Translations under genes and position numbers: made by a program | Assembly (NCBI RefSeq): GCF_003334815.1 | Contig: NZ_QOWO01000093.1 | DNA length: 1,796 nucleotides | Source of the DNA: Escherichia coli | GTDB lineage: Bacteria > Pseudomonadota > Gammaproteobacteria > Enterobacterales > Enterobacteriaceae | Direction: 5' to 3' (one strand) | In this document: positions 279 through 371 of the stretch, in pieces | Position numbering within the stretch: the first letter of the stretch is position 1 | Layout of the letters: every line of letters begins with the position of its first letter | The notes under the pieces: generated by a model | Seen by the model: only the letters and a program-made list of their open reading frames with translations | Databases searched by the model: none | What the model was told of the DNA's origin: nothing

Positions 279-301
279 TTAACAACTTATTAAGTTGTTA
301 A
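279..301. promoter_or_regulatory. Perfect 23-bp palindrome TTAACAACTTA-T-TAAGTTGTTAA; putative operator overlapping a candidate promoter
   Basis: Direct read: 279-289 is the exact reverse complement of 291-301 around the central T at 290. It shares its 11-bp half-site with the second palindrome at 341-371. Confidence 0.6.
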
Positions 302-307
302 TATAAC
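279..307 (+). promoter_or_regulatory. Candidate sigma70-type promoter for the par operon (-35 TTAACA at 279-284, 17-bp spacer, -10 TATAAC at 302-307)
   Basis: Hexamers match the consensus TTGACA/TATAAT at 5/6 and 5/6 with a 17-bp spacer. An alternative is -35 TTGCAT at 316-321 with a weak -10 near 339-344. Either is pattern matching only, with no transcript data. Confidence 0.3.
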
Positions 308-340
308 AAAAATAATTGCATGATTCGCGTTCAGATGGCA

Positions 341-371
341 ATATTAAGTTGTTAACTTAACAACTTAATAT
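341..371. promoter_or_regulatory. Perfect 31-bp palindrome ATATTAAGTTGTTAA-C-TTAACAACTTAATAT; putative operator or 5'UTR hairpin directly upstream of the parA RBS
   Basis: Direct read: 341-355 is the reverse complement of 357-371 around the central C at 356. Same half-site as the palindrome at 279-301 but with the arms in the opposite order. It ends immediately before GGGG (372-375) and the ATG at 381. Confidence 0.6.

Follow-up and report, generated by a model that had tools for sequence, protein, structure and literature searches.

What reads the two perfect palindromes that lie between a plasmid centromere and the parA gene beside it? The question arises in a 1,796-nucleotide stretch of Escherichia coli DNA (contig NZ_QOWO01000093.1; the whole stretch is hereafter called the window), which shows 100% identity with NZ_LT985321.1, the IncI1 plasmid RCS85_pI of E. 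coli ECOR 3, and is the published type Ib parAB partition cassette of IncI1 plasmids (R64/pESBL type). We found that both palindromes are built from units of the centromere type, and that they likely form the operator of the par locus for ParB, a putative ribbon-helix-helix (RHH) protein, with four boxes in each, like OF of TP228. All positions below are those of the window.

Unit structure of the two palindromes

The first palindrome (P1) consists of TTAACAACTTA (279-289), T290, and TAAGTTGTTAA (291-301) and is a perfect inverted repeat with 11-nt arms. The second (P2) consists of ATATTAAGTTGTTAA (341-355), C356, and TTAACAACTTAATAT (357-371) and is likewise perfect, with 15-nt arms. The 11-mer of P1 also occurs in P2, with the arm order reversed and ATAT added on each side. 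A first-pass annotation, made from the letters alone, had described perfect palindromes at 279-301 and 341-371 that share a half-site in opposite arm order, lie between the octamer array (175-254) and parA (ATG 381), and are improbable by chance, the second one abutting the ribosome-binding site. Coordinates, arms, and placement were all confirmed, and P2 ends one base before the GGGG at 372-375. The chance level was estimated by counting perfect inverted repeats (arms ≥11 nt, spacer ≤1 nt) in 5000 dinucleotide shuffles of each of two regions (154-380 and 258-380). A single such repeat appeared in 9/5000 and 4/5000 shuffles, respectively, and a pair in 0/5000 for either region.

Octamer arrays (GATAACAA/TTGTTATC) stand on both sides of the operon, with 10 units at 175-254 and 1+6 at 1303-1358. 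Both palindromic blocks resolved fully into 7-mers, each followed by a 1-nt spacer, at the 8-bp period of these iterons (Table 1). To guard against circularity, the motif TTRTTAT was defined from the window's own centromere units only. All eight units of the two blocks matched it in one orientation or the other with at most one mismatch: the P1 units had 1, 1, 1, and 0 mismatches, the unit at 303-309 being an exact inverted copy, and the P2 units had one each. When 258-380 was shuffled, 3/20000 shuffles had a run of four units of this motif at 8-bp spacing, and 0/20000 had two. The octamer GATAACAA has a six-base core, TAACAA, which is also present in the half-site TTAACAACTTA; this core (TTGTTA/TAACAA) occurs five times in 258-380 against 0.34 expected, a number reached by 0/20000 shuffles. 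Because each arm holds the iteron core, the palindromes are not distinct in sequence from the iterons, as had been claimed; instead, 8/8 units lie within one mismatch of TTRTTAT at the same 8-bp period.

The unit structure also accounts for the geometry of the palindromes. That at 279-301 comprises the first three P1 units and has its dyad on TTATTAA, the self-complementary unit in the middle, and that at 341-371 comprises the four P2 units, with its dyad on the spacer C356; the opposite arm order thus follows from a dyad that sits on a middle unit in P1 and on a spacer base in P2. The P1 block is in 8-bp phase with the centromere array (279-175 = 104 = 13x8), and P2 lies 6 bp out of that phase. 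Unit orientation in both blocks is mixed between direct and inverted, unlike in the mostly direct centromere array, and homologues show other mixes. Most boxes are symmetrised, with TTGTTAA instead of TTGTTAT, and their general form is TTRWYAW.

Conservation of the blocks in homologous cassettes

Homologous cassettes were collected from IncF E. coli (L005), IncR/IncFIA Klebsiella including pK245 (L006-L008), Erwinia (L009, L030), Enterobacter/Citrobacter (L010, L013-L015), Pantoea (L012, L017, L035), Edwardsiella (L022), and Entomohabitans (L029), and the common IncI1 lineage was represented by pHUSEC41-1 (L036) and pLAO40 (L037). ParB identity to the window among the collected cassettes went down to about 58%. 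A four-unit block directly before the Shine-Dalgarno sequence was present in 15/15 cassettes from about eight clades, with scores of 24 to 28 out of 28 against TTRWYAW; the homologues retain three to four units of this kind there. In 13 of the 15, this score was reached by 0/2000 shuffles, and in L015 and L017 (24/28 each) by 19 and 24 of 2000; for the window's own clade, these figures are only indicative, the motif being post hoc.

The P2 block was conserved in nine diverged homologues (alignment A3), with substitutions confined to degenerate unit positions or spacers. Within the P2-type clade, three central bases vary (ACT, ATT, TCT, TTT), and a change of A355 to T in L029 and L035 turns the unit into the exact iteron TTGTTATC. 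Erwinia L009 carries four direct TTAATAA-g units at the P2 position, and the Enterobacter/Citrobacter block reads TTGTTATc CTATTATc TTAATAAg ATAACAAa; the outer units of L013, TTATTAT and ATAATAA, show the same G/A alternation as is found among centromere units. At P1, four in-register units were found in 10/10 P2-type cassettes, and the longest perfect arm ranged from 3 to 11 nt; IncR plasmids have two direct octamers there (TTAACAAc TTAACAAg) and no palindrome. Neither palindrome is perfect in pHUSEC41-1 or pLAO40, where the region lies about 100 to 10 nt upstream of parA: the P1 middle unit is TTGCTAA, and P2 unit 3 is TTAACAG, whose complement CTGTTAA mirrors the CTGTTAT units in the centromere arrays of the same plasmids. 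Dyad symmetry is therefore not a conserved trait, since the P1 arms vary, IncR and Erwinia cassettes have direct repeats, and arm changes go uncompensated. Across these alignments, the perfect dyads are specific to the IncI1 lineage of the window, and the conserved property is the set of 8-bp units and not the symmetry.

One relative was left out of the comparison for want of an adjacent parA. Plasmid pCFSAN001016 of Salmonella enterica subsp. salamae (L011) has a parB homologue with 91% identity, upstream of which no parA could be recognised and downstream of which there are just two or three octamers; its cassette may be decayed or an orphan.

The element was also sought outside these cassettes. 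The first-pass annotation had proposed to look for further copies of the half-site, which would define a regulon. On both strands of the 117,804-bp plasmid, with up to one mismatch allowed, TTAACAACTTA occurred nowhere beyond the four arms at the par promoter, so no regulon emerges. A scan of 298 Gb of genomes for the P2 core AAGTTGTTANNNTAACAACTT returned 17 loci. Five of them are Enterobacterales par loci, the only ones with a flanking parA; the remaining 12, which lack both a parA and conserved flanks and belong to unrelated AT-rich genomes, were set aside as chance matches. The element moves with parAB across unrelated backbones (IncI1, IncR, IncF, and plasmids of Pantoea, Erwinia, and Edwardsiella), so the simplest assumption is that its binding factor is encoded by the cassette.

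Promoter candidates around the blocks

The best-conserved promoter candidate, TTGCAT-17-TGnCAATAT (Table 1), is predicted to start transcription near 351. In alignments A2 and A3, ATTGC (315-319), TG (336-337), and CA.TAT are invariant and the 17-nt stretch between them varies freely; a crude sigma-70 scan placed this candidate among the top four, at the same position, in 8/10 homologues. An alternative, TTCAGA(330)-17-TGnTAACTT(353-358), was found in 5/10 homologues, and both candidates put P2 over the -10 element and the start site. A third, TTAACA(279)-17-TATAAC(302), lies inside the P1 block; it took second place in the window and first place in L035, with CATAAT as its -10 there. The earlier statement that P1 covers the best -35 candidate stands to the extent that P1 does overlap one candidate, but this is just one among three comparably weak ones. 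The P1 block ends 5 nt before the conserved -35-like TTGCAT. Whichever candidate is used, the boxes would overlap core promoter elements. Two other candidates were rejected: the sole plus-strand match of a consensus scan near parA, which overlaps the start codon, and a minus-strand TTGCCA/AATTAT pair, whose -10 is not conserved.

ParA, ParB, and the published centromere

ParA has a Walker A motif (KGGVGKS, residues 9-15) and lacks an N-terminal DNA-binding domain, a type Ib trait. It matched ParA_partition (NCBIfam, E=1e-45), and its best solved relative was ParF of TP228 (4dzz, E=2.3e-14, full length). A small centromere-binding protein with an RHH fold by model is encoded directly downstream and overlaps parA; this ParB is 99% identical to the ParBs of IncI1 plasmids. 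A monomer model (pLDDT, the predicted local distance difference test score, 70) gave a disordered tail (residues 1-45) and three helices, and modelling suggests a C-terminal RHH domain with a flexible N-terminal tail. Omega was among the fold matches of ParB. A Pfam search of ParB gave no significant match (RHH_8, with E=0.064 in one member, came closest), and an NCBIfam search gave nothing useful. ParB homologues share an invariant N terminus (MRNR...FINGGTAG), followed by a variable linker, an invariant KAKPVSxS segment, and then the helices. The DNA-reading strand does not vary within the family, which makes covariation of ParB specificity with the boxes uninformative; shared unit variation was used instead.

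The N-terminal segment MRNRxxxPxxDExxFIxGGxAG (ParB residues 1-22, window 1004-1069) is near-invariant in homologues down to 55% identity, though it is predicted to be disordered. By analogy with the tail of ParG, it is a candidate ParA-interaction or arginine-finger tail.

The centromere of the R64/pESBL type was defined only in 2020 (Poidevin et al., PMC7602700). In that work, the pESBL cassette stabilised a mini-F plasmid, and GFP-ParB formed foci only with the plasmid present (PMC7602700). In electrophoretic mobility shift assays (EMSAs), pESBL ParB gave seven complexes with the 7-DR probe (seven direct octamers) and eight with 8-BS (4+4 inverted), and the authors proposed that one ParB binds per octamer, with comparable affinity for direct and inverted units and with evidence of cooperativity (PMC7602700). 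The flanks of the window's arrays match the published 7-DR probe (PMC7602700 supplement). The probes end at CTTAATTAA, near window position 262, and 279-371 is outside both 7-DR and 8-BS. No promoter or operator was mapped there, and the part of the upstream region in expression was left undetermined (PMC7602700); our literature search turned up no work on the promoter or operator of the R64/pESBL-type cassette, whether of IncI1 or of the homologous IncR plasmids. A two-fold symmetric RHH dimer on the near-symmetric TTGTTAA, in either orientation, would fit both the EMSA data and the box grammar.

Proposed function of the blocks

The two blocks consist of centromere-type units at the centromere period, the P1 block is in phase with the array, conservation follows the units, and the element stays with the cassette; for these reasons, we read the two blocks as a probable ParB operator. 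ParB dimers would load cooperatively, one per box. On the P2 block (341-372), ParB would occlude the -10 element and the start site, and the P1 block (279-310), which abuts the -35, would carry the centromere complex on to the promoter. Rising ParB occupancy would in this way shut off parAB transcription, giving negative autoregulation, although both the binding of ParB at 279-310 and 341-372 and the repression are inferred. ParA would probably help as a co-repressor. In TP228, ParF enhances repression by ParG. The P1 and P2 boxes may also contribute to centromere function.

Several points weigh against the blocks being a ParB operator. Seven of the eight units are one position off the centromere 7-mer, so that their affinity could be low, and the published EMSA probes exclude 279-310 and 341-372. 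All promoter candidates are weak by consensus (the preferred one has 3/6 + 3/6 plus TG, and the others rank similarly), and the position of the par promoter is deduced from the sequence. The model does not call for the perfect, ATAT-extended symmetry, which may be due to chance fixation or to gene conversion between the arms; the conserved phase among homologues may stem from shared ancestry and not from selection. The degenerate TTRWYAW was derived after the sequences had been viewed, and only the TTRTTAT test is free of that circularity. On the protein side, the RHH fold was assigned with an artificial fused-dimer model; fold searches with the ParB monomer model gave no significant match, and a profile search of ParB against the PDB gave none at E<=10.

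Four other explanations were weighed. ParB might bind the boxes merely as extra parS sites, with no role in transcription, any autoregulation running through the direct-repeat array. The phase that the P1 block shares with the centromere array would suit such a role, as would the finding that OF of TP228 is itself a proficient centromere (PMC3130281), and the par promoter is a predicted one. By contrast, a four-unit block stands right before the Shine-Dalgarno sequence in every clade examined and overlaps both conserved promoter candidates; because arrays already flank the cassette on both sides, a purely centromeric role is hard to square with this placement, and we consider it unlikely. We are similarly doubtful that the proximal boxes are a functionally distinct class of ParB site or that a host factor reads the extended dyads. 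Were this so, the symmetrised dyads might give another geometry or affinity, for example dimer-of-dimers clamps flanking the core promoter, possibly joined with the centromere array by an IHF-type (integration host factor) bend at 269-281, and one small RHH protein would use two grammars of one word, one for segregation and the other for a sharp transcriptional switch.

The palindromes could also act as hairpins, either in the RNA, where stem-loops in the 5' leader of parA would influence translation or the stability of the mRNA, or in the DNA as cruciforms. RNA of 275-395 does fold into both hairpins (-27.5 kcal/mol, z=-3.9, 0/200 shuffles as good), P2 ends at the Shine-Dalgarno sequence, and transcription from TTAACA-17-TATAAC would include P2 and part of P1. 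From the best-conserved candidates, however, transcription would start inside P2 and leave the full stem outside the RNA. No compensatory change was seen in any of the 15 P2 pairs over nine homologues, where six cells were unpaired and one was G-U, a sample so small and highly conserved that this is weak negative evidence. The common IncI1 lineage has an uncompensated A-to-G change in one arm, P1 is not palindromic in IncR, Erwinia has direct repeats at the P2 position, and there was no Rfam match; hairpins are thus a highly improbable explanation. The one to which we give the least credence is a separate two-fold symmetric regulator, such as a plasmid- or host-encoded helix-turn-helix (HTH) dimer, acting as a second input to par. 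Perfect dyads of 23 and 31 bp are typical of dimeric repressor operators, the outer P2 arms (ATAT/ATATTAAG) are conserved beyond the iteron core, a host factor common to Enterobacterales is conceivable, and an IHF-consensus site adjoins P1. Yet the half-site has no other copy on the 117.8-kb plasmid, the element follows parAB into backbones that share no other regulator, the symmetry of P1 is not conserved, direct repeats replace P2 in L009, and centromere-type units at the centromere period account for the whole sequence. The dimeric HTH regulator encoded elsewhere that the first-pass annotation had offered as one form of a second input thus finds no support, there being no regulon and the element being cassette-borne with a dyad that is not conserved. 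What survives of the second input is that non-random elements of a protein-binding type lie in the par control region, without the premise of a separate regulator; the other option offered then, a second binding mode of the par proteins, comes close to the ParB boxes favoured here.

Comparison with known partition systems

The closest precedent is parH + OF of TP228, in which twelve mostly direct ACTC boxes that make up the centromere are followed by eight boxes of mixed orientation that serve as the operator over the promoter (PMC3130281). The TP228 boxes have an 8-bp period (a 4-bp box and a 4-bp AT spacer) and the RHH protein ParG coats them, with one dimer on each (PMC3130281). Both systems combine a small ParF-like Walker ATPase with a small RHH centromere-binding protein that has a flexible N-terminal tail, and in both a mostly direct upstream array is followed by eight gene-proximal boxes of mixed orientation at an 8-bp period. 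They differ in that the ParB of the window has no detectable sequence similarity to ParG, its box is the 7-mer TTRTTAT and not ACTC, a second centromere array lies downstream of parB, and the eight proximal boxes are split 4+4, flanking or overlapping the predicted core promoter, as perfect palindromes in this lineage. With the pESBL/R64 ParAB system (PMC7602700), the window shares the cassette, the octamer (GATAACAA = TTGTTATC), and the arrays upstream and downstream, whereas its proximal boxes are one-mismatch, symmetrised variants of those octamers.

In two other type Ib systems, par2 of pB171 (parC1/parC2, ParB) and delta-omega of pSM19035, arrays flank the operon and the centromere-binding protein represses through the upstream repeats (PMC7602700 discussion). 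The window resembles both in having repeat arrays on the two sides of its operon; their repeats, however, are of 6 bp and 7 bp, their proteins are unrelated in sequence, and no separate palindromic block at the -10 or start site has been reported for either. The omega heptads of pSM19035 occur in direct and inverted orientation.

The R64/pESBL-type parAB cassette is present in about 1,300-1,500 PLSDB records, among them IncI1, IncR, and IncF resistance plasmids of E. coli, Klebsiella, Salmonella, and Shigella. For this cassette, the analysis yields a map that comprises four-box blocks at 279-310 and 341-372, a candidate promoter that lies partly between these blocks and partly beneath them, and a conservation rule based on units; it should be useful for incompatibility or curing constructs and for reporter fusions. 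The P1/P2 feature is real and undescribed in the literature searched, and its nature is most likely ordinary for type Ib systems, with no new kind of mechanism: it would be a further example of RHH partition proteins that reuse one box for segregation and regulation.

Other features of the window

Table 1. Coordinates of the features in the window (., no strand assigned)
Feature	Position	Strand	Remark
impB/umuC-like Y-family polymerase gene, 3' end	4..153	+	upstream neighbour, outside the par system
Upstream centromere (parS) array, ten direct 8-bp units	175..254	+	corresponds to the pESBL 7-DR EMSA probe (PMC7602700)
Conserved block TATAAATCA, then IHF-consensus match AATCAAATACTTA (269-281)	265..281	+	between the array and the P1 block
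P1 block, four 8-bp-spaced units	279..310	.	TTAACAA-c, TTATTAA-g, TTGTTAA-t, ATAACAA-a; starts 279, 287, 295, 303
Best-conserved promoter candidate	316..344	+	-35 TTGCAT (316-321), 17-nt spacer, TGn (336-338), -10 CAATAT (339-344)
P2 block, four 8-bp-spaced units	341..372	.	ATATTAA-g, TTGTTAA-c, TTAACAA-c, TTAATAT-g; starts 341, 349, 357, 365
Shine-Dalgarno sequence of parA	372..375	+	GGGG here; GAGG in homologues
parA, 208 aa	381..1007	+	start ATG 381
parB, 100 aa, centromere-binding protein	1004..1306	+	overlaps the 3' end of parA
Downstream centromere array	1303..1358	.	one inverted ATAACAC (1303-1309), then six direct TTGTTAT-c (1311-1358)

Between the upstream array and P1, TATAAATCA is invariant in six diverged homologues (alignment A2). 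The adjoining AATCAAATACTTA is the sole match to the IHF consensus WATCARNNNNTTR in the window, and at least one match arose in 49/200 shuffles; most homologues are one position off this consensus.

The units of the upstream array run in the order TTGCTAT, 3x TTGTTAT, 5x TTATTAT, and TTGTTAT, with a C after each, and the run of five TTATTAT units is unusual among the homologues. When this array was compared with those of L005-L008, L022, L029, L030, and L035-L037, copy number and unit variants (TTGTTAT, TTATTAT, TTGCTAT, CTGTTAT, TTACTAT) differed widely among otherwise close plasmids, which suggests rapid expansion, contraction, and homogenisation of the centromere repeats. In the downstream array, the inverted ATAACAC unit adjoins the six direct units and keeps their 8-bp phase. 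It contains the stop codon of parB (TAA, 1304-1306), so that the downstream centromere starts within the coding sequence.

Outside the par system, the gene at 4..153 matched UmuC (NCBIfam, E=4.5e-21) and is annotated as a Y-family DNA polymerase in NZ_LT985321.1. An element of about 290 bp (1416-1707), resembling a miniature inverted-repeat transposable element and unrelated to par, has 47-nt terminal inverted repeats that are 79% complementary. E. coli plasmids carry similar sequence at 1,631 sites and chromosomes at 31, most of them without annotation, and the ends of the element, GGGGTCCGC...ACGCTAAG, resemble the terminal repeats of the Tn3 family.

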